IMG/VR virus record: IMGVR_UViG_2645727821_000005
Coordinates: 1-17,526 of that record
DNA length: 17,526 bases
From: a virus
Lineage: Duplodnaviria > Heunggongvirae > Uroviricota > Caudoviricetes
Reading direction: 5' to 3' (one strand)
Position numbers and translations under genes: made by a program. How positions within the stretch are numbered: the stretch's first letter is position 1; the number at the start of each line of letters is the position of its first letter. Below the pieces are notes generated by a model that saw nothing but the letters and a program-made list of their open reading frames with translations, was not told where the DNA came from and ran no database searches. This document shows positions 1 to 17,526 of the stretch, one piece after another.

Positions 1-237
1 GTAACCATAAGGCGGCGTCCACAGAAAGGCCTTCCAGCCCCCGTGCTCAGCCAGAAACGACTCCAGCGCCGTGGCCTCCTCACGGGAGACAGACAGCGTC
101 ACGCTGTACGTTTTCAGGTCAGCGTTCAGCCCGGCAGGCGCACGCTGGGAATAGCCATCACCAAAGCGCACCTCCCTGACGGAAGGAGCCGATGTCACAT
201 CCATCCCGGGTTTCACTTTCCAGCGGAAGGTTTTCAT
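1..237 (-). CDS. M: Tail protein gpM (lambda M-like), partial: 3' end runs off the window edge
   Basis: Minus-strand ATG at 237..235 (MKTFRWKVKPGMDV...) reads in frame to position 1 with no stop. The ATG overlaps the TGA stop of H (ATGA coupling). Position directly downstream of H matches lambda gene order. Confidence 0.8.
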   Translation of the reverse strand, partial: MKTFRWKVKPGMDVTSAPSVREVRFGDGYSQRAPAGLNADLKTYSVTLSVSREEATALESFLAEHGGWKAFLWTPPYGY

Positions 238-2816
238 CGTCCACCTCCGTAGAACAGACCACCATCGCGCATCTGTGCCTGGATTTCATCACGGGCACCC
301 TTGCGGGCCATGTCATACACCGCCTTCATCATCTGTGGACCTGGCAGACCATTCGTACCGTCGTTCTGAATCACCACGTTGTTGTTCTGCTCAAACCTGA
401 TACCCTCTGAACGCCGCATTTGCGCCGGACTTCCGGTGCCACCGACATAACCGCCAGTGGCATAGCCGCGCATCAGCCGGTAGAGATTCCCCACGCCAAT
501 CCGGCTGGTTGCCTCCTTCGTGAAGACAAATTCACCACGGTGAACAATCCCCGCTGGCTCATATTTGCCGCCGGTTCCAGTAAATCCTCCGGTTGCAAAA
601 TGAAATTTCTCCGCAGCGGCCTGAATGGCTGTACCGGTTGAGACGGATGCGCCGCCACCAACAACTCCGCCAATGACGCTGCCGATACTCCCGACAATCC
701 CCACCATTGCCTGCTTAAGCAGAATTTCTGTCATCATGGACAGCACGGAACGGGTGAAGCTGCGCCAGTTCTGCTCACTGCCGGTCAGCATCGCCGCCAT
801 ATTCTGCGCAATACCATCAAAGGTCTGCGTGGCTGCACTTTTAACCTGCGACATACTGTCCGTGGCGCTCTCTTCCCACTCACTCCAGCCGGACTTCAGG
901 CCTGCCATCCAGCTCCCGCGAAGCTGGTCTTCAGCCGCCCAGGTCTTTTTCTGCTCTGACATGACGTTATTCAGCGCCAGCGGATTATCGCCATACTCCT
1001 CCTTCAGGCGCTGTTCCGTGGCTTCCCTCGCTGCCTGCCGGTCAGTCAGCCCCCGGCTTTTCGCATCAATGGCGGCCCGTTTTGCCCGTTGCTGCTGTGC
1101 AAATTTATCCGCCTGCTTCGCCAGTTCGTTCAGCCGTTTCTGGTGTTCAACCTTATCGCCAAGTTCAGCCAGCTGACGTTTGTACTCCAGCGTCTCTTTT
1201 TCATGAGCAAGAAGAGATTTTTCCTCGATACTTAGCGATTTCTTCTGTCCGTCCAGAACGTCAGCAGACAACTTCTCATGCAACACGGCATACTGGCTTT
1301 CGGCTGTCCACAAATCCCGGCGCTGCTGGCTGATTTTTTCATTCGCTCCGCTATGCTGCTCAAGCATTTTTAGTTCAGCTTGTAACGCAAGAAGAGCTGC
1401 ATGTGCTCGATCTTCCTGACGCTCTCCCGCAGACACCTTCACGCCGGACTGTTTCGGCTTTTTCAGCGTCGCTTCATAATCCTTTTTCGCCGCCGCCATC
1501 AGCGTGTTGTAATCCGCCTGCAGAATTTTCCCGTCTTTCAGTGCCTTATTCAGTTCTTCCTGACGGGCGGTATATTTCTCCAGCGGCGTCTGCAGCCGTT
1601 CGTAAGCCTTCTGCGCCTCTTCGGTATATTTCAGCCGTGACGCTTCGGTATCGCTCTGCTGCTGCGCATTTTTGTCCTGTTGACGCTGTTGATCTACCCT
1701 CTTTTGGGCTGCATCCCGCTCCAGGCGTTTTTTTTCACGATCATCCCAGTAACGCGCCCGCGCTTCATCGTTAACGAAATAATCATCCTTGCGCAGATTC
1801 CAGATGTCGTCTGCTTTCTTAAACGCAGCCTCTGCCTTAATCAGCATCTCCTGCGCGGTATCAGGACGACCAATATCCAGCACCTCATCCCACATGGATT
1901 TGAATGCCCGTGCTGTCCTGTCTGCCCAGGTCTCCAGCGTGCCCATGTTCTCTTTCAGGCGGCGGGTCTGGTCATCAAACCCTTTCGTTGCGGCCTCGTT
2001 CGCCGCCTGCAATGCCCCGGCTTCATCGCCGGAACGCTGCAACTGAGCAACATACGCAATCTGCTCCGCCGTCACGTTATGGAACTGGCGCGCCATCGCC
2101 GTCAGCCCCGACGTCGGGTCAGTGGTCAGCTTCCCGAAGGCTTCAGCGACCTTGTCCACCTCCACGCCGGATGCAGAGGAGAAACGCGCCACACTCTGGC
2201 TGATGGACGCAATCTGAGCCTCACCGCTTACCCCCGCCTTAACCAGTGCACTGAGTGACTCGCTGGTCTGGTTAAACGTCAGCCCTGCCGCCTGCCCGGC
2301 TCTGGACAGGACCAGCATACGATCTGCCGTCAGACCCGACTGATTGCCGGAAAGGACCAGCGTTTTGTTGAAATCGGACAGGGTTGAGTTGCCCTGATAC
2401 CAGGCATACGCCAGCGCACCGGTCGCCACCGCCAGCGAGGTTGCCCCGACCATCGGCAGGGTGATCGCACCGGCAAGCCCCCTGAACATGGGGATCATCC
2501 CGCCGAAGGAGTCCTTCACCTGACCACCCTGTTGCAGCAGGATCAGCCACGGACTTTGCCCGCCTGCAAGCTGCGTGGCCACGTCGGTGAACTGCGCAGG
2601 CAGCATACGCATGGCAGCTTTATACTGCCCGACGGAAATCCCCGCTTTCTGTGCAGCCAGTGCCTGTCGGCTCAGCGACTGTTCAACGACTGCCGCTGTT
2701 TTTTTCGCATCACTTTCCGTACCGGAAAAATGACGCCTGACTCTGGCCATCTGCTCGTCAAATCTGGCCGCATCCAGACTCAAATCAACGACCAGATCGC
2801 CTACCGGTTCAGCCAT
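234..2816 (-). CDS. H: Tail tape measure protein gpH
   Basis: 860-aa ORF, ATG at 2816..2814. N-terminus MAEPVGDLVVDLSLDAARFDEQMARV and C-terminal glycine-rich region match lambda gpH as I recall it; long coiled-coil-like central region. Start overlaps the end of the T reading frame. Confidence 0.93.
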   Translation of the reverse strand: MAEPVGDLVVDLSLDAARFDEQMARVRRHFSGTESDAKKTAAVVEQSLSRQALAAQKAGISVGQYKAAMRMLPAQFTDVATQLAGGQSPWLILLQQGGQVKDSFGGMIPMFRGLAGAITLPMVGATSLAVATGALAYAWYQGNSTLSDFNKTLVLSGNQSGLTADRMLVLSRAGQAAGLTFNQTSESLSALVKAGVSGEAQIASISQSVARFSSASGVEVDKVAEAFGKLTTDPTSGLTAMARQFHNVTAEQIAYVAQLQRSGDEAGALQAANEAATKGFDDQTRRLKENMGTLETWADRTARAFKSMWDEVLDIGRPDTAQEMLIKAEAAFKKADDIWNLRKDDYFVNDEARARYWDDREKKRLERDAAQKRVDQQRQQDKNAQQQSDTEASRLKYTEEAQKAYERLQTPLEKYTARQEELNKALKDGKILQADYNTLMAAAKKDYEATLKKPKQSGVKVSAGERQEDRAHAALLALQAELKMLEQHSGANEKISQQRRDLWTAESQYAVLHEKLSADVLDGQKKSLSIEEKSLLAHEKETLEYKRQLAELGDKVEHQKRLNELAKQADKFAQQQRAKRAAIDAKSRGLTDRQAAREATEQRLKEEYGDNPLALNNVMSEQKKTWAAEDQLRGSWMAGLKSGWSEWEESATDSMSQVKSAATQTFDGIAQNMAAMLTGSEQNWRSFTRSVLSMMTEILLKQAMVGIVGSIGSVIGGVVGGGASVSTGTAIQAAAEKFHFATGGFTGTGGKYEPAGIVHRGEFVFTKEATSRIGVGNLYRLMRGYATGGYVGGTGSPAQMRRSEGIRFEQNNNVVIQNDGTNGLPGPQMMKAVYDMARKGARDEIQAQMRDGGLFYGGGR

Positions 2817-3647
2817 ACCGGACTCCTCCTGCGATACCTTCTGATACTGTCATCAGCATTACGTCATCCTCCGTCATGTCCGCCACATCCGGGGAAGCGG
2901 GGATAACTTCATTCCCGTCCGGGCCAAAGCGGACGCCTCCGGCAAGCCCTGCCGCTTTCTGCATCAGCACATCATCTTCAGGCTCTTCGTCAGCCTCGCG
3001 CCGGTTCAGCAGACTGAAATCCAGCGGATGCATATCCGGATCGCTGAAAAACAGGCTGAGCACGGTGTACGTCAGCCCGGAAAAGTGCATATCCAGCAGA
3101 ACATCATGAAAATAATGGGTACTGTAAAAGCGGTGCCAGTCGGCATACTCCGTGGATGACATCCCGGCGAGCATGGCGCGCCAGTCGGGTCGCCCCATCT
3201 CGCGCGCCAGTTTCAGGGCAAAACTCAGCTCACCGTCGAACACTTTCCCGCAGAAACAGGCTCTGCAGGCCCGGCGTCCTCTGCCTGGTCAGGGGCATCA
3301 TTCACCACAAACTCATACATTCCGGACAGCCGGTACACCACGTTTTCAGCATGAGAAATTGCCGCTGTGGGCCAGGTGGTAAGCACTTCCTGCTCAATCT
3401 GTTTAACGGCTTCATTCATGGACGGCTGCTTTGTCTTCTGCGGATGGTTATGCCACAGGGACATCGCCACCAGAAACGCGCCGGTTCTGATGGCGTCTTC
3501 CACAGTAAACTTCCGGTTGCTGTCTGACTCCGCCTGTTCTGCCTGCCGTTTCATCAGGGCGAGATGCTCAATACGCTGCAGGGCTGACAGTTCAGAAAGC
3601 GTGACGGTCACGCCGTTATATTCAAATGATTCGGTTTTCAGGAACAT
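2809..3647 (-). CDS. T: Tail assembly chaperone gpGT, made by a -1 programmed frameshift from G into the T frame
   Basis: The T frame (2809..3243) is open in the -1 frame relative to G and has no independent start with an RBS. Slippery heptamer G GGA AAG lies at minus-strand 3249..3243. T frame ends 8 nt inside the start of H. Confidence 0.85.
3225..3647 (-). CDS. G: Tail assembly chaperone gpG
   Basis: 140-aa ORF (MFLKTESFEYNGVTVTLSEL...), ATG at 3647..3645 preceded by GGAGAG. Same length as lambda G. Ends SAGKCSTVS immediately after the GGGAAAG slippery heptamer. Confidence 0.92.
   Translation of the reverse strand: MFLKTESFEYNGVTVTLSELSALQRIEHLALMKRQAEQAESDSNRKFTVEDAIRTGAFLVAMSLWHNHPQKTKQPSMNEAVKQIEQEVLTTWPTAAISHAENVVYRLSGMYEFVVNDAPDQAEDAGPAEPVSAGKCSTVS
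3243..3249 (-). other. Programmed -1 ribosomal frameshift slippery site GGGAAAG (G to G-T)
   Basis: Plus strand 3243..3249 is ctttccc, reverse complement GGGAAAG, lying across the last codons of G (…A-G-K-C-S-T-V-S-stop). The -1 frame continues into the T ORF. Confidence 0.85.
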
Positions 3648-3662
3648 CGCTGACTCTCCGGA

Positions 3663-4403
3663 TTAGCTGTCGGTGACGTTGATTTCTGCAACCGCAGCAA
3701 ACTCACCATTACCGGATACAACCGGAATGTTGACCCTGCCTGCAGCAACGCCCTTCACGGTGATGGTCATACCACTGACCGACACGGTGGCTTTTGTTTT
3801 ATCCGAAGACACCGCACGGAAGCTCTTGTCGGTTGCGCCTTCCGGCTGGAATGCCACGGTCAGCGTGGTGCTCTGCCCTTTCACCACCGAGGTGCTGGCA
3901 GGCGTCACGGTCATGCCGGTTGCCGCTGTTACCGTGCTGCGATCTTCTGCCATCGACGGACGTCCCACATTGGTGACTTTCACCGTGCGGGTGATCACTT
4001 CCTTCGCCGTCACCGCCTTACCGATACTGCTGACCCAGCCACGGAACACATCGACCGTGCCGTTCGGGAAGCGAATTTTATAGGCACGGGTATCACCTTC
4101 ATTAAACCACGCCAGCAGCGCCTGCTGCCCCTGCTCTCCGGGCATCCACGCCAGCGTGAAACTGGTATCTCCGGCAGATTTCTGCCCCTGCCCGGTCGCA
4201 GTCCAGTCCGCATCTTCATCATCGAGATAGCTGTCGTCATAGGACTCAGCGGTCAGTTCGCCGGGTGTCAGGTCTTTAACTTTTGCCAGACGCGACCAGT
4301 CAACGTCTGAAAGCGGGTTTGCATAAGGGTCGCCGCTCCCGTTATAAACCCACAGTGTGGTCCCGGCCCCTTTCACCGGTGCCAGAGGATTTGGTGTTGG
4401 CAT
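3663..4403 (-). CDS. V: Major tail tube protein gpV
   Basis: ATG at 4403..4401 preceded by GAGGA gives 246 aa ([20 protein letters not shown]...), the lambda V length. The ORF-track start at 4433 is an upstream in-frame extension that overlaps U. C-terminal Ig-like region present. Confidence 0.9.
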
Positions 4404-4410
4404 ATCGTCC

Positions 4411-4806
4411 TCACATTTCATAGGTAATGACATAAGTCAGATCGGCTGAACTCCACAGGCCCGCATCATCGTCGCGCCGGTAGTCATAGCCGCTGGCCAC
4501 CATACTGGTGATCAAATCTGACAGTGCCGGGATATCGCTCATCACCGGATAAATCCGGGACTCCATCCACGCATCCAGCTCTGAATCCGGCACCTGAGCA
4601 GGCAGGAAAACTTCGATATGCAGCTCCGCCTGCCAGGTATCGCTGTCCAGCTCTTCGCCCGTGTATTCAGCGCCAGTGAGATAAACGGCAATTGCCGGAA
4701 AATCCGCCTCATCAAAAACAGCGGGGCGACCATCAAAAAGCGTCGCCCCGGTGTCATGCTTCTCCAGTGCATCCAGTACGGCTGCACGGAGTTCAGTATG
4801 TTTCAT
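4411..4806 (-). CDS. U: Tail tube terminator protein gpU
   Basis: 131 aa ([21 protein letters not shown]...), same length as lambda U. ATG overlaps the Z stop (ATGA). Confidence 0.92.
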
Positions 4807-5378
4807 CGCTTTATCACAATCCTCAGTTGTTGTTTCAGCGCATAGCTCAGTTCTTTTGGCAGACGTTCTCGCCGGATACGGTTAACGTTCTCATCAAAAG
4901 CCTGTTTCAGTGGGACCGCCATCGGAATTTTCACCACCTGAATGGGAAGACGATTACGCTTTTTCCTTCCCTTATCGTCAGTGCCCTTCGCATACCGTGC
5001 TTCTGGCAGACGTTGCATAACATGCCAGCGTCCATTATTTAATCGCTGGATGAATGCCCGCTGATAACGATGCTGACCGGCTTTGAGTATGCTGTTCGGG
5101 CGATGACCAAGCATCCTGATCCCCAGCTTAATAGCAGGGAGATCACCTCGGTTAACGATAATTTTTGCATTCGGATTTCTGACCGTAGCTCGTTTCAGTC
5201 TGGATCGCTCTTTAACCAGTTTTCTCGGCACCCGGGTTTCACGGGCGACCTGAGACGAAGACTGATTAATCGCCGTTGCGGCCACGCGGTTAATGGCCAT
5301 TGCTGACGCACCAGGCACCGCCGTTTTGCTGATACGGCTGAGGTTTTCAACGGCCTGCTCAAGACCTTTTATGGCCAT
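4803..5378 (-). CDS. Z: Tail completion protein gpZ
   Basis: 191 aa (MAIKGLEQAVENLSRISKTAV...), ATG at 5378..5376. Position and length match lambda Z (192 aa as I recall). Confidence 0.88.
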   Translation of the reverse strand: MAIKGLEQAVENLSRISKTAVPGASAMAINRVAATAINQSSSQVARETRVPRKLVKERSRLKRATVRNPNAKIIVNRGDLPAIKLGIRMLGHRPNSILKAGQHRYQRAFIQRLNNGRWHVMQRLPEARYAKGTDDKGRKKRNRLPIQVVKIPMAVPLKQAFDENVNRIRRERLPKELSYALKQQLRIVIKR

Positions 5379-5389
5379 ACACCCCCCTT

Positions 5390-5743
5390 TCAGCGACGAC
5401 GGTTAACGGCAGGCGGCACACCACGCCCAAGCCAGAGATGACAACTTCCGCCATCATCCGGCGAAATCCGGTCTATCCAGAAGTTTTCCTCACCGATGGT
5501 CAGCGTGTCGCCGCGCCGCAGCTGCCGCACATCATCAGTCCGGACAAACAGGGACGGGCTGGAGCCTTCAACGCGCACGCCCTGTCCGGCATAGCTGATA
5601 TTTTCAGGGTCATCAAAAACACCACGTATCACCGCACCGGACTGCTCACCGGATGTCATGGTGGCTGACGTTCCCATGTACCCGCGTATCGTTTCATCGG
5701 CGCGGGCAATGGCAGCATCGAACAGGTTATCGAAATCAGCCAC
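5390..5743 (-). CDS. FII: Head-tail joining protein gpFII
   Basis: 117 aa (MADFDNLFDAAIARADETIRGYMG...). GTG start at 5743..5741 preceded by GGGAGG with 4-nt spacer. Confidence 0.9.
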   Translation of the reverse strand: MADFDNLFDAAIARADETIRGYMGTSATMTSGEQSGAVIRGVFDDPENISYAGQGVRVEGSSPSLFVRTDDVRQLRRGDTLTIGEENFWIDRISPDDGGSCHLWLGRGVPPAVNRRR

Positions 5744-5754
5744 AGCGCCTCCCG

Positions 5755-6153
5755 TTATTGCATTCTGGCCAGGCCACGTTCTGTCATTTCGGCTGCCACA
5801 CCGGCAGAGACACGGAACGCCGTTCCCGGCAGCACAAATGCCACAGGTTCATCCCGCGTGGCGTGAAGTGCATCGGTATGCAGCGTCACCAGTGCCACTA
5901 CCGTGACCAGTTCAGCCGTATCATGAATCACGGTATCCGGCTGCGCTGATACCACCTCATTTTCATGCCCGGTCAGCGCATTTTCCGGGCTGACAGATGT
6001 GTCCTGACCGGCAGCGTCATCCGTGTCATCAAGCTCCTCTTCCAGCTCTGCCACACGGAGTGCCAGTTCTTCTTTCGTCCCCGTCAGGCTGACATCACGG
6101 TTCAGTTGCTCACCCAGCACCTGAAGACGGGCAATCAGTTCATCTTTCGTCAT
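5755..6153 (-). CDS. FI: DNA packaging / head assembly protein gpFI
   Basis: ATG at 6153..6151 preceded by GGAGGAG gives 132 aa (MTKDELIARLQVLGEQLNRDV...), the lambda FI length. The ORF-track start at 6192 is an upstream extension. Confidence 0.9.
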   Translation of the reverse strand: MTKDELIARLQVLGEQLNRDVSLTGTKEELALRVAELEEELDDTDDAAGQDTSVSPENALTGHENEVVSAQPDTVIHDTAELVTVVALVTLHTDALHATRDEPVAFVLPGTAFRVSAGVAAEMTERGLARMQ

Positions 6154-6194
6154 GGACTCCTCCACAGAGAGAAAATGGCCCCGAAGGGCCATGA

Positions 6195-7220
6195 TTACGC
6201 CAGTTGTACAGACACGAATTCATCAGGGTCAGCCAGCAGCATCAGCGGTGCTGACTGAATCATAGTGAACTCACGCGCCGGATCGCCGGTGGTCACCCAG
6301 TTTTTCGGGTAACGGGCAGAGGCGTTAATGCCTTCGCGCTGTGCGTCCGCATCCTGAATGCAGCCATAGGTGCGCAGACCGCGTGCCTGAGTGTTCCCCA
6401 GCACCATCGTGTTGTCCGGCAGGAAGTTCTTTTTGACGCCGTTTTCCACGTACTGTCCGGAATAAACGACGATGGCCACATCGCCATACATTCCCTTATA
6501 AGACACCGCTTTGCCCAGGTCTTTCACCGCTGTCTCCAGCTCGGAATGAGAGCCGCGACGGGTATCCAGCTTATCCTTGACGGCCTTGAAGGAACGGAAC
6601 AGCGCCCAGCCTTTCGGATCAAACACGATGATATTCACCACACCGCTGGCGTTCAGCGCGTAGGCTTCGATATCGTCGGTCGGGTCATACGTGGACTTGT
6701 CACGCTGGCTCCACTGCGTGCCGCCGGACTGCGTGATGTTATTCGCCGCACTGCGGCCCATATCCACTTCAACCGGATCGAAGGCTTCACCGGTCATGGT
6801 GTATTTGCCCTTAAGCACGGCAGAAACGGCCTGCATCTCTTCGACCTGAGCAATGGCCAGCTCTTCGTCACGCATGTTCTGCATGATGATGCGACGGCGG
6901 CGGTAAGCCGGGTCCGCCAGATTCTGTGGATCTTCATCCGGCAGGCGACGCAGGGTCATCTGCGGATTCACCTCATGCTTCGGCTTGACATATCCCGGCG
7001 TAAATTCAGAGGTGGAGCCGCCACGGGAACGGATAACCTCACCGGAAACAATCGGCGAAACGTACAGCGCCATGTTTACCAGTCCCGGAATTTGTGAGAG
7101 ATAGACTTTCTCCGTGGTGAAGGGATAGCTCTCACGGAAAAAGAGACGCAGAAACAGCGGATCAAACTTAAATTTCTTCTCATTTGCCGCCAGCAGCTGG
7201 GCAGTTGTGTACATCGACAT
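6195..7220 (-). CDS. E: Major capsid protein gpE
   Basis: ATG at 7220..7218 gives 341 aa (MSMYTTAQLLAANEKKFKFDPLFLRLFF...), the lambda E length. The ORF-track start at 7247 is an upstream extension into the D-E intergenic hairpin. Confidence 0.93.
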   Translation of the reverse strand: MSMYTTAQLLAANEKKFKFDPLFLRLFFRESYPFTTEKVYLSQIPGLVNMALYVSPIVSGEVIRSRGGSTSEFTPGYVKPKHEVNPQMTLRRLPDEDPQNLADPAYRRRRIIMQNMRDEELAIAQVEEMQAVSAVLKGKYTMTGEAFDPVEVDMGRSAANNITQSGGTQWSQRDKSTYDPTDDIEAYALNASGVVNIIVFDPKGWALFRSFKAVKDKLDTRRGSHSELETAVKDLGKAVSYKGMYGDVAIVVYSGQYVENGVKKNFLPDNTMVLGNTQARGLRTYGCIQDADAQREGINASARYPKNWVTTGDPAREFTMIQSAPLMLLADPDEFVSVQLA

Positions 7221-7230
7221 AAAAAAATTC

Positions 7231-7257
7231 CGTAAAAAAAGCCGCACAGGCGGCCTT
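7231..7257 (-). terminator. Putative intrinsic terminator/attenuator hairpin between D and E
   Basis: Minus strand reads GCCGCCTGTGCGGC (5-bp GC-rich stem, 4-nt loop) followed by TTTTTTT, between the D stop and the E start. Confidence 0.5.
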
Positions 7258-7275
7258 TAGTGATGAAGGGTAAAG

Positions 7276-7608
7276 TTAAACGATGCTGATTGCCGTTCCG
7301 GCAAACGCGGTCCGTTTTTTCGTCTCGTCGCTGGCAGCATCCGGCCAGAGCACATCCTCATAACGGAACGTGCCGGACTTGTAGAACGTCAGCGTGGTGC
7401 TGGTCTGGTCAGCATCAACCGCAAGAATGCCAACGGCAGCACCGTCGGTGGTGCCATCCCACGCAACCAGCTTACGGGTGGAGGTGTCCGGCATCAGCGG
7501 GGTCATTGCAGGCGTTTTCGCACTCAATCCGCCGGGCGCGGTTGCGGTATGAGCCGGGTCACTGTTGCCCAGCGGCTGGTAATGGGTAAAGGTTTCTTTG
7601 CTCGTCAT
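7276..7608 (-). CDS. D: Head decoration protein gpD
   Basis: ATG at 7608..7606 preceded by AAGGGA gives 110 aa ([27 protein letters not shown]...), the lambda D length. Confidence 0.92.
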
Positions 7609-7617
7609 AAACATCCC

Positions 7618-8223
7618 TTACACTGGTGTGTTCAGCAAATCGTTAACGGCATCAGATGCCGGGTTACCTGCAGCCAGCGGTGCCGGTGCACCCTGCATCA
7701 GACGATCCAGCGCAGTATCACTGCGCGCCTGTGCACTCTGTGGTGCTGCGGCCAGAATGCGGCGGGCCGTTTCCACGGTCATACCGGGGGTTTCAGCCAG
7801 CACGCGGGCCTGTTCTTCGCGTCCGTGAGCCTCCTCACAGTTGAGGATCCCCATAATGCGGCTGTTTTCTGCCGCAACTGCTGCGGTGATCTGCGCGTTC
7901 ACGTCCGGCTGCGCCGCGCTGGCGTTTTCGCCCTCCGTCTCTGGCATCACGTCAGTAACGTCAGCCTGCGAAGCAGTGGCTGAAACAGTTGTTGATTGGG
8001 TCTCTTTGGTCATTCGCCCTCCTGAGAGACGGGATTTACGTGCATCCAGTGCATCACGCATGACGGTGATCGCATCGGTGCTGTTAACAAGTTCATCAGC
8101 CAGTCCGGCATCAATGGCCTCCTGACCGCTGTACACTGCAGCCTCGGTATCCAGCACAGCCTGCACGGACAGGCCGGTATATGCCGACACCTTCTGCGCA
8201 AACATCCGGCGGGTTGCATCCAT
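7618..8223 (-). CDS. Nu3: Scaffolding protein gpNu3, nested in frame in the 3' third of C
   Basis: Internal in-frame ATG at 8223..8221 (MDATRRMFAQKVSAYTGL...) gives 201 aa sharing the C stop, as in lambda. Called from the lambda precedent and the presence of the ATG, not from an independent signal. Confidence 0.6.
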   Translation of the reverse strand: MDATRRMFAQKVSAYTGLSVQAVLDTEAAVYSGQEAIDAGLADELVNSTDAITVMRDALDARKSRLSGGRMTKETQSTTVSATASQADVTDVMPETEGENASAAQPDVNAQITAAVAAENSRIMGILNCEEAHGREEQARVLAETPGMTVETARRILAAAPQSAQARSDTALDRLMQGAPAPLAAGNPASDAVNDLLNTPV

Positions 8224-8917
8224 CCGGGACTGCAGTGTCTCCCGGACGTCATCCGGAAGATGGCTGTAGGGGTTGCCATCCACCTTATGGCTGCCGCTGT
8301 AAATCAGCGTGATTTCCATGCCCTGTTTCTCCAGCGCAGCGCCGTAATTACTGTGAGCCATCATGACGCCGATGGAGCCTGTCCGGGCGGTCTGTGTGAC
8401 CAGACGCCGGGAGGCGGCACTGGCAAGCAGCTGACCTGCACTGCAGTTCATGTCGTTGGCCAGCGCCCATACCGGTTTTATGTCACGCACACGGGCGATG
8501 ATGTCAGCGCAGTCAAATGCCCCCGCCACCATCCCGCCGGGCGTGTCCATATCGAGCAGAATGCCGTCCACCATCGGATCGCTGGCAGCCTGTTGCAGAC
8601 GGGCGATAATGCCGTTGTAACCGGTCATCCCCGAATACGGCTGCAGCGCCCGCGTCCGGCTGACCAGCGTGCCGGACACCGGCAGCACGGCGATGCCGTT
8701 CATGACCTGATAACTGCGGGCCTGTCGTGGTCCGTCATCATCAACGGATAACGCCAGCGTCGCGGGTGCCTCTCCGGCAGTCAGGCTGTCACCGGACACC
8801 GCATCCGTCAGGCGGCTGATCCCAAGCTGGCCTGCAAGCGCACAAAAGAAAACCCGCGCATAGGCGGGTTCAAGCATCAGCGGCTCATTAAAGGCCATGC
8901 TGGCAATATGCGGGAGA

Positions 8918-8937
<20 letters not shown>
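7618..8937 (-). CDS. C: Head maturation protease / scaffold gpC (ClpP/S49-like)
   Basis: GTG at 8937..8935 preceded by GGAGGAGAAGA gives 439 aa (VTAELRNLPHIASMAFNEPLML...), the lambda C length. Start overlaps the 3' end of B by 20 nt as in lambda. The ORF-track start at 9072 is an upstream extension. Confidence 0.9.
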
Positions 8938-12618
<3,681 letters not shown>

Positions 12619-12644
<26 letters not shown>

Positions 12645-13164
12645 TCAGCAACCCCGGTATCAGTTCATCCAGCGCGGCTGCTTTGTTCATGGCTTTGATG
12701 ATATCCCGTTTCAGGAAATCAACATGTCGGTTTTCCAGTTCCGGAAAACGCCGCTGCACCGACAGGGGGATCCCGTCGAGAATACTGGCAATTTCACCTG
12801 CGATCCGCGACAGCACGAAAGTACAGAATGCGGTTTCCACCACTTCAGCGGAGTCTCTGGCATTTTTCAGCTCCTGTGCGTCGGCCTGCGCACGCGTAAG
12901 TCGATGGCGTTCGTACTCAATAGTCCCTGGCTGGAGATCTGTCTCGCTGGCCTGCCGCAGTTCTTCAACTTCCCGGCGCAGCTTTTCGTTCTCAATTTCA
13001 GCATCCCTTTCGGCATACCATTTTATGACGGCGGCAGAGTCATAAAGCACCTCATTACCCTTGCCACCGCCTCGCAGAACGGGCATTCCCTGTTCCTGCC
13101 AGTTCTGAATGGTACGGATACTCACACCGAAAATGTCAGCCAGCTGCTTTTTGTTGACTTCCAT
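12619..13164 (-). CDS. Nu1: Terminase small subunit gpNu1
   Basis: 181 aa (MEVNKKQLADIFGVSIRTIQNWQEQGMPVLRGGGKGNEVLYD...), ATG at 13164..13162. N-terminal winged-HTH region. Sits about 190 bp downstream of cosN as in lambda. Confidence 0.95.
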
Positions 13165-13400: not shown

Positions 13401-13435
13401 TTCTCAATGAATTCAATGTCTGACAGACCTGCGTC

Positions 13436-13453
13436 GTGCGACCACGGTCGCAC
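13436..13453. repeat. 18-bp palindrome GTGCGACCACGGTCGCAC, copy 1 of 3
   Basis: 8-bp inverted arms GTGCGACC / GGTCGCAC around a 2-bp centre. Identical 18-mer recurs at 15122..15139 and 15342..15359. Confidence 0.9.
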
Positions 13454-13477
13454 AGCAATGAATCAACATCCTGCATG

Positions 13478-13546
13478 CTCGTGCAGAGGAGTTCCCCGTC
13501 AGGCTACGGTCATGGTTAATGCGGGAATACAGCGACGATACAGCGC
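13478..13546. repeat. Direct repeat, copy 1 (~69 bp; partner at 15263..15331)
   Basis: ctcgtgcagaggagttccccgtcaggctacggtcatggttaatgcgggaatacagcgacgatacagcgc aligns to 15263..15331 in the same orientation with 5 mismatches (about 93% identity) at an offset of 1785 bp. Confidence 0.9.
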
Positions 13547-13662
13547 ATGATGTGTCAGGCTTGAATACATTTATCCGTTAAAAGGGATATCAGTTAAGTT
13601 ATCCCGTGTAGGGTATAAGCCATTATCAAAGCCACTCAGTAGCGAATGGCTTTTGTAATGGA

Positions 13663-14112
13663 CTATTTAATTAGTGATGCTGCGTATTCGATTAGATATA
13701 ACTTAGGTGCCAACCAGATTTTTAACCATGTCATATTGGTTACTACAGCAATAATAAAACTTACCCACAGAACAAAAACTGCTGCTAATGGTAAGATAAG
13801 AAAACTAATCTCACCGTTACTTTCCCAAATCATAGTCGGTTTGTATTTAGGCTTCCCTTTTTCCCATGACCATCCTTCATTATCGAACTTACCAATTTCA
13901 ACTTTTTGGTACTGTTTCTTCATAAACCAAATAACCAGCGGGATTGTTGAAATGGCTATTAATGTTTTAATCAGGCTATCAACCATATTCCATACCAGCA
14001 ACTGATGAACAACATCCGGAATCTGAGCCTGACTGAATGCAATGGCGGAATCAATTCCATCGCTGGCCTTCTTCAATAAATCAACAAGAATTTTATTTGC
14101 TTCTTCTTGCAT
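13663..14112 (-). CDS. Hypothetical small membrane protein (149 aa; at least two predicted transmembrane segments), AT-rich accessory gene
   Basis: ATG at 14112..14110 with a weak AGGA-type RBS (MQEEANKILVDLLKKASDGIDSAIAF...). Hydrophobic stretches LIKTLIAISTIPLVIWFM and ISFLILPLAAVFVLWVSFIIAVV. Lysine-rich, low GC compared with the flanking phage genes. No family recognised. The ORF-track start at 14157 is an alternative. Confidence 0.7.
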   Translation of the reverse strand: MQEEANKILVDLLKKASDGIDSAIAFSQAQIPDVVHQLLVWNMVDSLIKTLIAISTIPLVIWFMKKQYQKVEIGKFDNEGWSWEKGKPKYKPTMIWESNGEISFLILPLAAVFVLWVSFIIAVVTNMTWLKIWLAPKLYLIEYAASLIK

Positions 14113-14237
14113 GTTTATATCCTGTAAGTTGTAAGCCTGTTCGAGAAAAATAAACAACTACGAGAGACAGAAAAAAAATATCTCAGGCTCTCTTTCTATA
14201 AGCTTTTAGTTGAGGATGTTCTGCAAAACAAAACTGG

Positions 14238-15098
14238 TTAGTTATGTAACTGCTTCCGGAATACAACAGCCGACGAGCTACAACGTAAAATTCGTTTGAT
14301 TGTGGCAGTTGAGGAAACATACTTGCATTTCTCAACATCATCAATAATGACCACATCCGGTACAGGAATGACGCGGGTATGCAATGTTTTTGCACTAATA
14401 ACATCACAGCCATTCAGTGGTCGAATATCTGCATCTTCAGGCACTACCAGAAGCACACGTTTTTCCGGTGCAGAAAAGCCAGCAGCAAGAGTGCGTGACA
14501 ATAAAGTCATTCCGCTGCGTGGCTTCATACAAATTTCAGAAATATGATTCTTTTCGTCCAAATGATGCTGGACATCATTTTTATCATCACTCAACAACTC
14601 TGCTGTTAATACAATCCCTGCTGTCTCAGATTTCCAGGAAATGCTGATATCCTGATCATCTGCATCAACATCATATTTCATCGAGTAAGGACTAAAGCTA
14701 CGTCCAACGAACGCATCATTTACCAGTACACGCCCACCCTGTCTGACCTGAAAGTCAACGCGCCCTGAAAGCTGATTTGCTGTTACAAGCAATGCCTTTT
14801 TTCTTTTTGTTTTATTGCTCATTGCCACCAACTGTTCAGCCATCTCTCTTGTCACACTACCAGAAACTCTTTCTTGAATTTTCACAGAAAATTTTCTGGA
14901 TGTAGTAGCATCGACATTAAAAAATCTGGATGTCATCAGGCAGTTATTAACAATTGGCATCAGCTCACTTACGATTGTAAAAAATTCCCGGTAAAGCTCA
15001 TTTTGCTTTTCAACACACAGCTTTCCACAATCGTCCAGCTTACGCTCAAGAGCACTTAACCTTTCCATTATTGAATTAATTTTTTGCAACTCTTTCAT
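14238..15098 (-). CDS. Hypothetical protein (286 aa), AT-rich accessory gene with a coiled-coil-like N-terminus; function unknown
   Basis: ATG at 15098..15096 preceded by a strong AGGAGG RBS at 5-6 nt spacing (MKELQKINSIMERLSALERKLDDCGKL...). The 373-aa ORF in the track extends upstream through the repeat and palindrome region and is probably not translated. Low GC. No family recognised. Confidence 0.75.
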   Translation of the reverse strand: MKELQKINSIMERLSALERKLDDCGKLCVEKQNELYREFFTIVSELMPIVNNCLMTSRFFNVDATTSRKFSVKIQERVSGSVTREMAEQLVAMSNKTKRKKALLVTANQLSGRVDFQVRQGGRVLVNDAFVGRSFSPYSMKYDVDADDQDISISWKSETAGIVLTAELLSDDKNDVQHHLDEKNHISEICMKPRSGMTLLSRTLAAGFSAPEKRVLLVVPEDADIRPLNGCDVISAKTLHTRVIPVPDVVIIDDVEKCKYVSSTATIKRILRCSSSAVVFRKQLHN

Positions 15099-15120: not shown

Positions 15121-15140
15121 CGTGCGACCACGGTCGCACG
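15121..15140. repeat. 18-bp palindrome, copy 2 of 3 (9-bp arms here), just upstream of the 286-aa gene RBS
   Basis: cGTGCGACCACGGTCGCACg. On the minus strand the hairpin is followed by GGTATTTTTGT and then AGGAGG and the ATG, so it is terminator- or attenuator-like. Confidence 0.85.
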
Positions 15141-15262
15141 CTCCTGAATACATGCCCTGTTTCTTCCACCCTCGCACAGGACTGGCGAGCATGAGGGACA
15201 AACCCGCGAATCATTAGCGCGGTAAAAACCCGGTGTGCATCGTTTTTGATTATTTCCGCACA

Positions 15263-15331
15263 CTCGCGCAGAGGAGTTCCCCGTCGGGCTACGGTCATGG
15301 TTAATGCGGAAATACGGCGACGATGCAGCGC
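15263..15331. repeat. Direct repeat, copy 2 (~69 bp; partner at 13478..13546)
   Basis: ctcgcgcagaggagttccccgtcgggctacggtcatggttaatgcggaaatacggcgacgatgcagcgc; see copy 1. Confidence 0.9.
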
Positions 15332-15340
15332 GGTATTTAA

Positions 15341-15360
15341 TGTGCGACCACGGTCGCACA
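15341..15360. repeat. 18-bp palindrome, copy 3 of 3 (9-bp arms), 20 nt downstream of the DUF4406-like gene stop
   Basis: tGTGCGACCACGGTCGCACa. On the minus strand it follows the TAA of the upstream gene and is followed by the A/U-rich ATTAAATAC. Confidence 0.85.
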
Positions 15361-15378: not shown

Positions 15379-15690
15379 TTATGCTACAGAGGAACAAGCT
15401 GGCGGGTAATTCAGCGTAGTGAATACCGGCATCTCCATCTTGTATGCGTAATGATACTCAGCAGTTGCTCCAGCAGACGCTTTCCAGCCAGGAAGCATCA
15501 AAATAGCATCCGCACAACGAAGCATTGCAAAGCAAATATCCATGTATTCACGTTGTGTCAGACCATTAGGTAAAGTGGCTGGATTCAAGACAGAGTGACC
15601 ATGTCGTGACAAACGATCTGCCTCTTTATTAAAGGCGTCACGATTAAAGTTCTCATATCCCGTCATTGGCCCGGCAATATAAATTTTCAT
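15379..15690 (-). CDS. Small accessory protein, DUF4406-like / nucleoside 2-deoxyribosyltransferase-like (103 aa)
   Basis: ATG at 15690..15688 (MKIYIAGPMTGYENFNRDAFNKEADRLSRHGHSVLNPATLP...). The N-terminal MKIYIAGPMTG...NP motif is what I recall as characteristic of DUF4406. Sits directly downstream of Rz. GC is visibly lower than the head genes. Family call is from memory. Confidence 0.75.
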   Translation of the reverse strand: MKIYIAGPMTGYENFNRDAFNKEADRLSRHGHSVLNPATLPNGLTQREYMDICFAMLRCADAILMLPGWKASAGATAEYHYAYKMEMPVFTTLNYPPACSSVA

Positions 15691-15731
15691 TCACTATCCA
15701 ACAAATTGAGTTCGTTTTTGATACAGAGGGA

Positions 15732-16199
15732 TTAATTCAGGCATTGCGTATTGATGTATTCCTGAAGCGTTCTCAGTGCTGTTTGGTCGCGGATAATTCC
15801 GTCCCGGATACCGAGAACGTTTCGTCCAGCAACTGAAGAGAGTTCGACGGTGGCATCATTGCCCATGCCGGAGGCGCTGGAGGTTTTGGCTGAGGCTGGC
15901 ACAAGGCATTTTCCTTTGACGAGCACCCGACCACCATTATCAAGCTTACGCCGAAGAGCATCATTTTCAGCTTTCGCATTGGCTAACTCCTTCGTGTATT
16001 TAGCATCGAGTGCATCAGCAGCACGCTGGCGCTGCTGCATGTCAGCGATGGTGGCGGTCGCCTGCTTCAGCTCACTGACTTTTTTATCACGCTGTTCTTT
16101 GTAGGCGATGGCGTTATCACGGTAATGATTAACAGCCCACGACAGGCAGACGATGATGCAGATAACCAGAGCGGAGATAATCGCGGTTAACCGACTCAT
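15732..16199 (-). CDS. Rz: Spanin inner-membrane subunit Rz (i-spanin)
   Basis: ATG at 16199..16197 ([40 protein letters not shown]...) gives an N-terminal transmembrane helix, then a coiled-coil periplasmic domain; N-terminus is like lambda Rz. The ORF-track start at 16235 is a GTG extension. Confidence 0.85.
15773..15979 (-). CDS. Rz1: Spanin outer-membrane lipoprotein subunit Rz1 (o-spanin), embedded in the +1 frame of Rz
   Basis: 68 aa ([44 protein letters not shown]...). ATG at 15979..15977, lipobox-like VVGC and a proline-rich segment, entirely inside Rz in a different frame as in lambda Rz/Rz1. Confidence 0.8.
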
Positions 16200-16287
16200 G
16201 ACATCAACACCCCAACGGCTAGAAACCACGGCCACGCATCGTTGCCATTAAATGCGAGCAACGCTGCCATGAAAAAGCAAATCATGC

Positions 16288-16785
16288 TCATTGCTGCCCC
16301 CACAAACAGACTTCTCGCTCAATATCACGACGGGTCATCAGCCCTTTCCATTGCTTACCGCCAGCGTATGTCCAGCGACGCAACTGGTCACATGCGCCCT
16401 TGATATCGCCCTGGTTTATTTTGCGAAGAAGCGTCGATGTTCTGAAATTACCAGCACCCACGTTGTAAACGAATGAGTAAAGAGCGCCGCGCGTTGTTTC
16501 CGGTATATCGACTTTGATGTACGGGTTAATTTGTCTGGCGACAGTGGCAAGGTCTTTATTCAGGAGGGCTTTGCATTCTGCTTCGGTATACGTTTTACCG
16601 AGCATGATGTCTTTTCCGGTGTGTCCGTGACATACAGTCCATACGCCAACGATATCTTTGTATGGTATGTAGCTGACACCTTCCAGGCCATCGTCACCAC
16701 CTGGGCCAGTGATTAACACTGATGCTATAGCAATTGCTCCGCCACCAATAGCAGCAGCAACGGCTTTTCGTAATGATGGAGGCAT
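16288..16785 (-). CDS. R: SAR endolysin (T4-lysozyme-family muramidase with N-terminal signal-anchor-release domain), phage 21 R-like
   Basis: 165 aa ([59 protein letters not shown]...). Gly/Ala-rich weakly hydrophobic N-terminus typical of SAR endolysins, followed by a lysozyme catalytic region. ATG overlaps the S stop (TAATG). Confidence 0.9.
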
Positions 16786-17000
16786 TATTCACCTCTCGCA
16801 GCCTTGCGCTTATCTTCTTTAATCTTGAAATAAAGGTTTGTCAGGTACGTCAGCAGGCCAAATACCAGGCTACCCAGCACACCTATTGCTGCCCACTGTG
16901 AGGGCGTGACTTTATCGAGCAACTGTAAAAACCAATACCCGGCACTACCTGCTGAGGTGCCATAGGCGACACCCGTTGTTAACTTATCCATGGATTTCAT
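16785..17000 (-). CDS. S: Pinholin (phage 21 S-like holin/antiholin with dual-start motif)
   Basis: 71 aa ([71 protein letters not shown]). Two transmembrane segments. MKSM dual start at Met1 and Met4. RBS GAGGTGG. Immediately upstream of the SAR endolysin. Confidence 0.9.
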
Positions 17001-17066: not shown

Positions 17067-17526
17067 TTATTTCCCCACCAGCTCGTTTATCTCTTTCACT
17101 GTCTGGTTAAACCGCCCTGACTCAAGATCAACACCTAAGGCCCGACGCCCCAGCGCCATTGCTGCTTTTATTGTGGAACCGGATCCCATAAAAAAATCAG
17201 CAACCAGATCACCTGGTCGACTACTGGCATTGATTATTTGCCTGAGCATATCCGCCGGTTTCTCACACGGATGTTTCCCCGGGTAGAACTGAACGGGTTT
17301 ATGCATCCAGACATCGGTATAAGGCACGGAGACTGATACGGAGAAATAGCGCCGGAGAGATTTAAACTCATCCAGCAATTCAGAATATTTGCGATTCAGT
17401 GAATCATAAGATGCCACCAGCTGGTGGTGTGGTTGTTCCAGTTGTTGTTCCTGAAACTTCTCTGCCGCTATACGGGAAAACAGTGCCTGTAACTTCCGAT
17501 AGTCAGCCTCATTCGGCAACTGCCAC
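17067..17526 (-). CDS. DNA methyltransferase (N6-adenine/N4-cytosine family, beta-class motif order), 3' portion only; 5' end lies outside the window
   Basis: C-terminal ...HKPVQFYPGKHPCEKPADMLRQIINASSRPGDLVADFFMGSGSTIKAAMALGRRALGVDLE... contains the FxGSGST AdoMet-binding motif I near the C-terminus. The DPPY-type catalytic motif expected upstream is not in the window, so the Met at 17519 is probably not the true start. Confidence 0.8.
   Translation of the reverse strand, partial: WQLPNEADYRKLQALFSRIAAEKFQEQQLEQPHHQLVASYDSLNRKYSELLDEFKSLRRYFSVSVSVPYTDVWMHKPVQFYPGKHPCEKPADMLRQIINASSRPGDLVADFFMGSGSTIKAAMALGRRALGVDLESGRFNQTVKEINELVGK

Follow-up and report, generated by a model that had tools for sequence, protein, structure and literature searches.

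A DUF4406 gene behind the lysis genes of an N15-like phage as a candidate gene for a minimal dNMP N-glycosidase

We analyzed a stretch of 17,526 nucleotides of viral DNA (Caudoviricetes; IMG/VR record IMGVR_UViG_2645727821_000005), hereafter the window, with a focus on a gene on its minus strand at positions 15379–15690. Its product, a 103-aa protein that is the counterpart of gp57 of phage N15, is with near certainty a typical member of the DUF4406 family, within the N-(deoxy)ribosyltransferase-like superfamily. Judging from its conserved residues, the protein may be a minimal dNMP N-glycosidase with a core of ~90 residues that shapes the nucleotide pool, and we give this reading about an even chance.

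An earlier note on this DNA had placed a small gene with the N-terminal signature MKIYIAGPMTG...NP at positions 15379–15690, directly downstream of the spanin genes and with a GC content below that of the head genes, and each of these observations was reproduced. The ORF list contained an ORF of 103 aa at exactly these coordinates on the minus strand, and its translation carried the signature (MKIYIAGPMTGYENFNRDAF...VLNPATLP). A 41-nt gap separates its start codon from the stop codon of Rz. The start itself is unambiguous because an in-frame TGA (15693–15691) directly precedes the ATG, and a GGA is located 7–9 nt 5' of the start (15699–15697). The GC content of the ORF was 44.6%, compared with 56.6% for the block of head and tail genes at positions 1–13164, and its GC3 was 38.5%, compared with 62–67% for the terminase and portal genes. 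Between this ORF and N15 gp57, pN/pS was ~0.12; we give this ratio instead of the classical dN/dS, which was not computable for this pair because the synonymous sites were saturated (pS 0.81). The value indicates strong purifying selection on the gene. Because the product scored 117 bits against a Pfam cut-off of 22, and because pN/pS was ~0.12, we take the ORF to be a real gene rather than a chance ORF.

The assignment to DUF4406, which the earlier note had based on the motif, proved right. A profile search matched the protein to Pfam PF14359 (DUF4406) with an E-value of 3.7e-34 and 117.4 bits (cut-off 22), and residues 1–90 were aligned with positions 1–90 of the 91-position profile, that is, over its full length. 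PHROG 355, which is named 'nucleoside 2-deoxyribosyltransferase', also matched (E 3e-45). The Pfam profile of the nucleoside 2-deoxyribosyltransferases (NDTs), PF05014, scored 20.7 bits, below its cut-off of 28.8, and the match to DUF1937 in Pfam was likewise sub-threshold. The protein PA1492 (PDB 1t1j), which belongs to DUF1937 and is itself uncharacterised, shared 21% identity with the window protein. NCBIfam gave no match, and a single-sequence search found no counterpart among the PDB sequences. No rival family with a confident match was found in the profile searches, and no sequence or profile match to TIR-domain NADases with a TIR-type active site was obtained. The motifs of the family (YIAGPMxG, NRxxF, NPAxLPxGL, YM and LxGWxxSxGAxxE), assessed for conservation in sets of 58 and 268 homologues, were all present in the window protein.

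The NDT-like fold that had been suggested along with the family was recovered by structure prediction. AlphaFold2, with an alignment of 58 homologues as input, produced a model with a mean pLDDT of 94.2, and this model displayed a flavodoxin-like alpha/beta, NDT-like fold of the kind common to NDT, DNPH1 and MilB. Its folded core stops at approximately residue 90. The best Foldseek matches of the model in the PDB were NDTs, and the DUF4406 family profile recovered, by sequence, the NDT 2a0k (E 1.8e-4) and BlsM (E 0.0034). The family was described in the same note as one of unknown function, which is still true: DUF4406 is mentioned in three papers, to judge from their titles in passing, and PF14359 was absent from the literature found, as were PhiR46 and N15 gene 57. 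A TIR preprint in which the DNPH1 papers are cited contained nothing pertinent.

We evaluated residue conservation in 150 DUF4406 representatives clustered at 50% identity and compared the conserved positions with the active sites of characterised enzymes. Tyr4 (codon at 15679–15681) aligned with the active-site Tyr in the 'KIYIAGP' strand of NDT and with a Phe of BlsM in profile alignments to 2a0k and 5vto; among the representatives, this position was Tyr in 125 and Phe in 18. The segment S72-A-G74-A-T-A-E78 (codons at 15457–15477) includes the Ser and Gly predicted to bind the 5'-phosphate and the Glu predicted to be the nucleophile, and its key residues were nearly invariant in the ungapped representatives (S72, 142/142; G74, 141/142; E78, 138/140). 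In profile alignments, E78 coincided with the catalytic Glu of T. brucei NDT (2a0k), BlsM and MilB, and S72-x-G74-x-x-x-E78 coincided with S97-P-G99-T-H-V-E103 of MilB, a segment that reads SPGTHVE in both BlsM and MilB. At the position of Ser72, the NDT of T. brucei, which is nucleoside-specific, carries an Asp. Further positions were conserved to a similar extent: G7 (145/145 ungapped), F20 (150/150), P37 (149/150) and Y49 (148/150). High conservation was also seen for N16, R17, N36 and W69. The third residue of the catalytic triad, which is located in the helix before strand 3 and is an Asp in NDT, DNPH1 and MilB and an Asn in DmtZ, was not found; the window protein has Cys53 (codon at 15532–15534) at this position, which corresponds to D78 of MilB and N77 of DmtZ.

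Among the 150 representatives, column 53 was occupied by C in 98, D in 21, T in 10, A in 7, G in 6 and S in 6 (31 representatives in total with neither C nor D). The triad column is thus Cys in approximately two thirds of the representatives and Asp in approximately one seventh. This variation suggests either a modified catalytic mechanism or subfamilies that would differ in their chemistry.

The positions of Tyr4 and of the S72–E78 segment have described counterparts in the (d)NMP N-glycosidases. In the structure of MilB with hmCMP, Ser97 and Gly99 form hydrogen bonds with the 5'-phosphate, and the E103A mutant served to trap the substrate (PMC4081090). According to PMC7308715, citing Sikowitz 2013, and PMC11204291, a Tyr instead of a Phe beside the catalytic Glu is considered to make an enzyme favour 2'-deoxy substrates, so that this position separates dNMP from NMP glycosidases. 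As in MilB and BlsM, a Ser-x-Gly located six residues before the Glu of the window protein replaces the Asp of NDTs. Differences were also evident: identity to the (d)NMP N-glycosidases (DNPH1/Rcl, MilB, BlsM and BcmB) was ~20%, the core of the window protein is ~40–60 residues shorter, the base-stacking Phe of MilB is replaced by Met9, and the triad Asp is replaced by Cys53. In the model and the alignments, the window protein also lacks the NDT-type C-terminal element, its core ending at approximately residue 90. In NDT and Rcl, a C-terminal segment contributes a residue to the active site of the neighbouring subunit.

Because Tyr4, Ser72/Gly74 and Glu78, taken together, match the corresponding residues of the glycosidases, we predict a dNMP N-glycosidase. 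In the predicted reaction, Glu78 would attack C1' to yield a covalent Glu78 intermediate, Tyr4 would position Glu78 and shut out substrates with a 2'-OH group, and Ser72 and Gly74 would grip the 5'-phosphate; the deoxyribose 5-phosphate might also be passed on to another base. If the gene is expressed as part of the lysis operon, of which it would be the final gene ahead of the packaging genes, the enzyme would act on the nucleotide pool during progeny DNA synthesis and packaging. Its target may be a particular canonical dNMP, or a damaged or modified one, that would be removed or recycled.

We consider the dNMP N-glycosidase to be the best mechanism because some phage relatives are fused to NTP/dNTP pyrophosphohydrolase domains. 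For example, gp164 of Mycobacterium phage Minerva (L002, 2980–3726) combines a DUF4406 domain (residues 28–111) with a PRA-PH/MazG-like NTP pyrophosphohydrolase domain (residues 142–196). In addition, PHROGs named MazG-like pyrophosphatase and hydrolase matched the DUF4406 domain, and the structural neighbours in BFVD included proteins named 'dATP/dGTP diphosphohydrolase N-terminal domain-containing', whose partners are known by name alone. These pyrophosphohydrolase fusions tie the DUF4406 domain to enzymes that produce dNMPs and lend independent support to the prediction. Domain fusions among the 43 longest close representatives were uninformative, the additional part being an HTH, DUF551 or nothing; these are probably mis-called starts or small phage ORFs. 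With regard to annotation, Minerva gp164 is recorded as a nucleotide pyrophosphohydrolase, yet it comprises two domains, and gp28 of Arthrobacter phage BaileyBlu (L003), recorded as a 'MazG-like pyrophosphatase', consists solely of a DUF4406/NDT-like domain and looks mis-annotated.

A phage enzyme with a comparable linkage has been described. DmtZ, a member of the NDT superfamily, is a dAMP N-glycosidase and deoxyribose-5-phosphate transferase, and it is fused to or located beside Dut, which hydrolyses dATP/dGTP (PMC12884076). Like DUF4406 here, DmtZ of Gordonia phage Ghobes and Arthrobacter phage Wayne is a phage-encoded protein of this superfamily, and its linkage to Dut parallels the fusions between DUF4406 and MazG-like domains. 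However, DmtZ represents a separate sequence family (hhalign E 0.045), with a length of 161 aa and the triad Tyr6/Asn77/Glu103, and the DNA of DmtZ phages contains 2-aminoadenine, whereas no sign of such DNA was found here.

Several points nevertheless speak against a glycosidase. The triad Asp/Asn is replaced by Cys53, at a position that varies across the family, which is a weak point of the prediction; another is that the C-terminal element that completes the active site of NDT and Rcl is missing. Sequence similarity to the characterised enzymes is weak, as seen from the PF05014 score and the hhalign E-value for DmtZ. Moreover, in the window the gene is found in a late lysis operon and not in a replication module, and we see no specific reason for a late dNMP hydrolase.

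The protein could instead be a true nucleoside 2'-deoxyribosyltransferase, which would swap the bases of free deoxynucleosides in salvage or base exchange; we regard this as unlikely. PHROG 355 and many phage homologues carry this label, NDTs (for example those of T. brucei, 2a0k, and L. leichmannii, 1f8x) gave the best PDB profile and Foldseek matches, in which both the catalytic Glu and the KIYIAGP strand coincide, and transferase activity is displayed by some phage NDTs of PF05014 (bioRxiv 10.1101/2025.10.22.683976). However, the window protein scored 20.7 bits against PF05014, for which the gathering cut-off is 28.8, and the C-terminal third of NDTs is absent from it. Where NDTs have an Asp that reads the 5'-group and binds the free 5'-OH, the family has an invariant Ser, like the phosphate-binding glycosidases, and the fusion partners are NTP pyrophosphohydrolases, which yield monophosphates and not nucleosides. 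The common label 'nucleoside 2-deoxyribosyltransferase' for DUF4406 proteins is therefore probably wrong.

We then considered the genes around DUF4406, which are also on the minus strand. The nearest upstream gene, Rz (i-spanin; 15732–16235, stop codon at 15732–15734), was identified by PF03245 (E 1.8e-27), and the Rz1 ORF (15773–15979, from the ORF list) is embedded in it and contains LIMVVGC, which we judge to be a lipobox motif. Further upstream are a lysozyme (16288–16785; PF00959, E 1.8e-45), a P21-type holin (16785–17000; PF04971, E 2e-35) and the C-terminal part of an N6/N4 DNA methyltransferase (17067–17519; PF01555, E 6.9e-23, and synteny). This methylase is located 5' of the lysis genes here and likewise in N15, PY54 and PhiR46_1. 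A scan of the 41-nt spacer between Rz and DUF4406 (15691–15731), which holds the GGA and the in-frame TGA mentioned above, found no terminator-like or promoter-like site on the minus strand. Because the gap is free of such sites, co-transcription of DUF4406 with the lysis genes would be the simplest reading.

Downstream of DUF4406, a perfect hairpin, GTGCGACC-GTGG-GGTCGCAC, lies 20 nt past the stop codon (15341–15359); its predicted folding energy is –14.3 kcal/mol, and it has no T-run. A second copy (15121–15140) is followed by the T-run GTATTTTTGT and scores as terminator-like. Barring read-through, the DUF4406 transcript is likely to end at the latter hairpin.

To place the gene among its relatives, we compared the order of genes in other phages and plasmids. 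The window protein was 100% identical to XSB42771.1, a 'hypothetical protein' of Escherichia phage PhiR46_1, a linear plasmid-prophage of 46 kb with telL/telR, protelomerase, ParAB and lambda-like head and tail genes, and 83% identical to gp57 of N15, the prototype telomere phage. Lysis genes, DUF4406 and packaging genes followed one another in the same order in Yersinia phage PY54 (ORF64, 65% identity), in Enterobacter contigs of 38–95 kb (79%) and, with a different terminase, in a Klebsiella phiKO2-like plasmid (~85%). An integrated lambdoid prophage of E. coli showed the order Q, holin, lysozyme, Rz, DUF4406 and Nu1. N15, PY54 and PhiR46_1 provide the closest known counterparts; in them, as in the window, methylase, holin, lysozyme, Rz and DUF4406 precede the packaging genes. 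N15 and the Enterobacter relatives differ in an additional 67-aa ORF between Rz and DUF4406, and N15 alone has a C5 methyltransferase after DUF4406, where the window has a low-GC cassette of two genes. In N15 (L017, 6234–7542), gp57 overlaps the start of gp58 (C5 cytosine methyltransferase, PF00145) by 20 nt.

A search of 5,426 complete E. coli genomes found the allele of the window in 38; chromosomes accounted for 25 copies and plasmid records for 16. The RefSeq label of the allele is everywhere 'DUF4406 domain-containing protein'. In PLSDB, a copy at ≥80% identity was found in ~197 records and a protelomerase in 228, an approximate comparison made by the size of the two sets. These similar counts suggest a near-core status of the gene in telomere phage-plasmids. 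DUF4406 is a very large family and rich in phage proteins: with clustering at 50% identity, an exhaustive HMMER search matched 10,869 clusters at E ≤0.001, of which 1,482 reached E ≤1e-10. By tblastn, the domain was detected in 559 phage records, mainly of Vibrio, Mycobacterium, Gordonia, Arthrobacter and Pseudomonas phages, and it also occurs in 364 plasmid records. Outside the N15-like lineage, DUF4406 is usually found in early or replication modules: it lies in the nin region of Salmonella lambdoid prophages, right after the replication genes and DUF977, among the early genes of Vibrio phage Cla and Vibrio prophages, and adjoining DnaQ, RecA or beta-clamp genes in actinophages. A DUF4406 protein of 203 aa is encoded near ea22-like genes by phage D6, which is P1-like. 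Because the gene is found in early or replication modules elsewhere, its position after Rz is specific to the N15-like lineage.

These observations bear on the roles that had been considered for the gene in the earlier note, namely anti-defence, nucleotide-pool manipulation and lysogenic conversion. The context favours nucleotide-pool manipulation among them, and we found no evidence for a role in anti-defence or lysogenic conversion. The occurrence of the gene in replication or nucleotide-metabolism modules of other phages also speaks for the predicted dNMP N-glycosidase, as does the low pN/pS. No defence family in PADLOC-DB matched the DUF4406 protein or either of its two neighbours at E ≤0.1. 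The apparent near-core status of the gene and the lack of a PADLOC match argue against a variable 'moron'.

A counter-defence protein would hydrolyse or sequester an immune nucleotide signal of the host or a toxic nucleotide, such as an ADP-ribose-derived signal or a modified dNMP. We consider such a role rather improbable, since neither the literature found nor PADLOC links the family to defence or anti-defence systems, the gene appears near-core rather than variable in telomere phage-plasmids, the Tyr-Glu pair disfavours 2'-OH substrates (ribose or NAD-type), and most phages carry the gene in a replication module.

The space between DUF4406 and Nu1 is occupied by the two-gene cassette (13663–15098, minus strand), with a GC content of 36–41%. 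The first gene encodes a 286-aa protein (phrog_2571) that was found in Escherichia only (15 clusters) and gave no match in Pfam, the PDB or PADLOC; its AlphaFold2 model was poor (pLDDT 58) and showed a coiled coil at the N-terminus and a middle part rich in beta structure. The product of the second gene (149 aa, phrog_3054) has two hydrophobic segments, at approximately residues 43–65 and 99–135. We asked whether the cassette could be a functional partner of DUF4406, and rejected this as unlikely, since it is absent from other carriers. Because it is missing from another DUF4406-carrying prophage (L020), we read the cassette as a separate insertion rather than a partner of DUF4406; it is a candidate exclusion or defence insertion.

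The flanks of the cassette contain repeated sequences. Three perfect hairpin copies, CGTGCGACC-ACGG-GGTCGCACG, are located at 13435–13453, 15121–15140 and 15341–15359, with RNA folding energies of approximately –14 to –15 kcal/mol. Together with the hairpins, a direct repeat of 74 nt at 13473–13546 and 15258–15331, with 91% identity between its copies, brackets the cassette. This layout looks like the scar of an insertion through recombination between duplicated flanks. The region at ~15153–15331 (~180 nt, with a copy near 13473–13570) is homologous to the ylcI/ynfO region upstream of Nu1/nohD, a homologue of which was found in lambdoid prophages of 3,181 of the 5,426 E. coli genomes. The copy that adjoins Nu1 has a stop codon, TGA, where the other copy reads CGA, and a 99-aa ORF across the upstream ylcI/ynfO-like copy had no Pfam match. 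The palindromes and the 74-nt repeat were also considered as an RNA element or as the ends of a mobile element; they proved to be mostly ylcI/ynfO homology with one terminator-like hairpin, that is, the flanks of the cassette. Rfam gave no match within the window.

The cassette is also relevant to a further explanation, in which DUF4406 would be a prophage-borne toxin or defence effector that depletes nucleotides to abort superinfection. NDT-like domains are effectors in retron systems (PMC12405507), and the gene occupies an accessory region of the prophage beside this uncharacterised low-GC cassette. We nevertheless regard an effector as very improbable: the protein, of 103 aa, stands alone, and neither a sensor nor a partner gene accompanies it from lineage to lineage; its gene follows Rz and showed no separate promoter-like site, PADLOC gave no match, and other carriers lack the neighbouring cassette.

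In mammals, DNPH1 removes an epigenetically modified dNMP. With this precedent, DUF4406 might assist a methyltransferase by cleaving a by-product of methylation or a modified nucleotide, for example 5-methyl-dCMP from DNA turnover or S-adenosylhomocysteine, and the overlap of N15 gp57 with gp58 and the N6/N4 methylase at the head of the same lysis operon in this lineage are consistent with it; however, the C5 methylase is missing here and in PY54 and the Enterobacter and Klebsiella relatives, no methylase adjoins the family members of Salmonella, Vibrio and actinophages, and the idea is purely conjectural, so that we give it hardly any weight.

We return to the dNMP N-glycosidase. In a more specific form of this prediction, DUF4406 proteins would constitute distinct minimal N-glycosidases with a Tyr-Cys-Glu or Tyr-Asp-Glu site, which in temperate phages and phage-plasmids would destroy one specific nucleotide, either a modified or damaged dNMP or a toxic or signalling nucleotide of the host. 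On this view, N15-like phages would have the gene as the last of the lysis operon for a late task, linked to packaging or counter-defence, and not for general salvage. We put this forward as a speculative and rather doubtful extension.

The gene described here is an ordinary, already annotated member of its family; the present analysis adds a specific and testable prediction of its activity, that of a dNMP N-glycosidase, and casts doubt on the common NDT label. A defined activity for DUF4406 would correct thousands of entries now labelled either 'hypothetical' or 'nucleoside 2-deoxyribosyltransferase', the latter label being probably wrong. If this activity is that of a dNMP N-glycosidase, ordinary temperate phages would join the viruses that edit the nucleotide pool of their host, as was lately shown by DmtZ.
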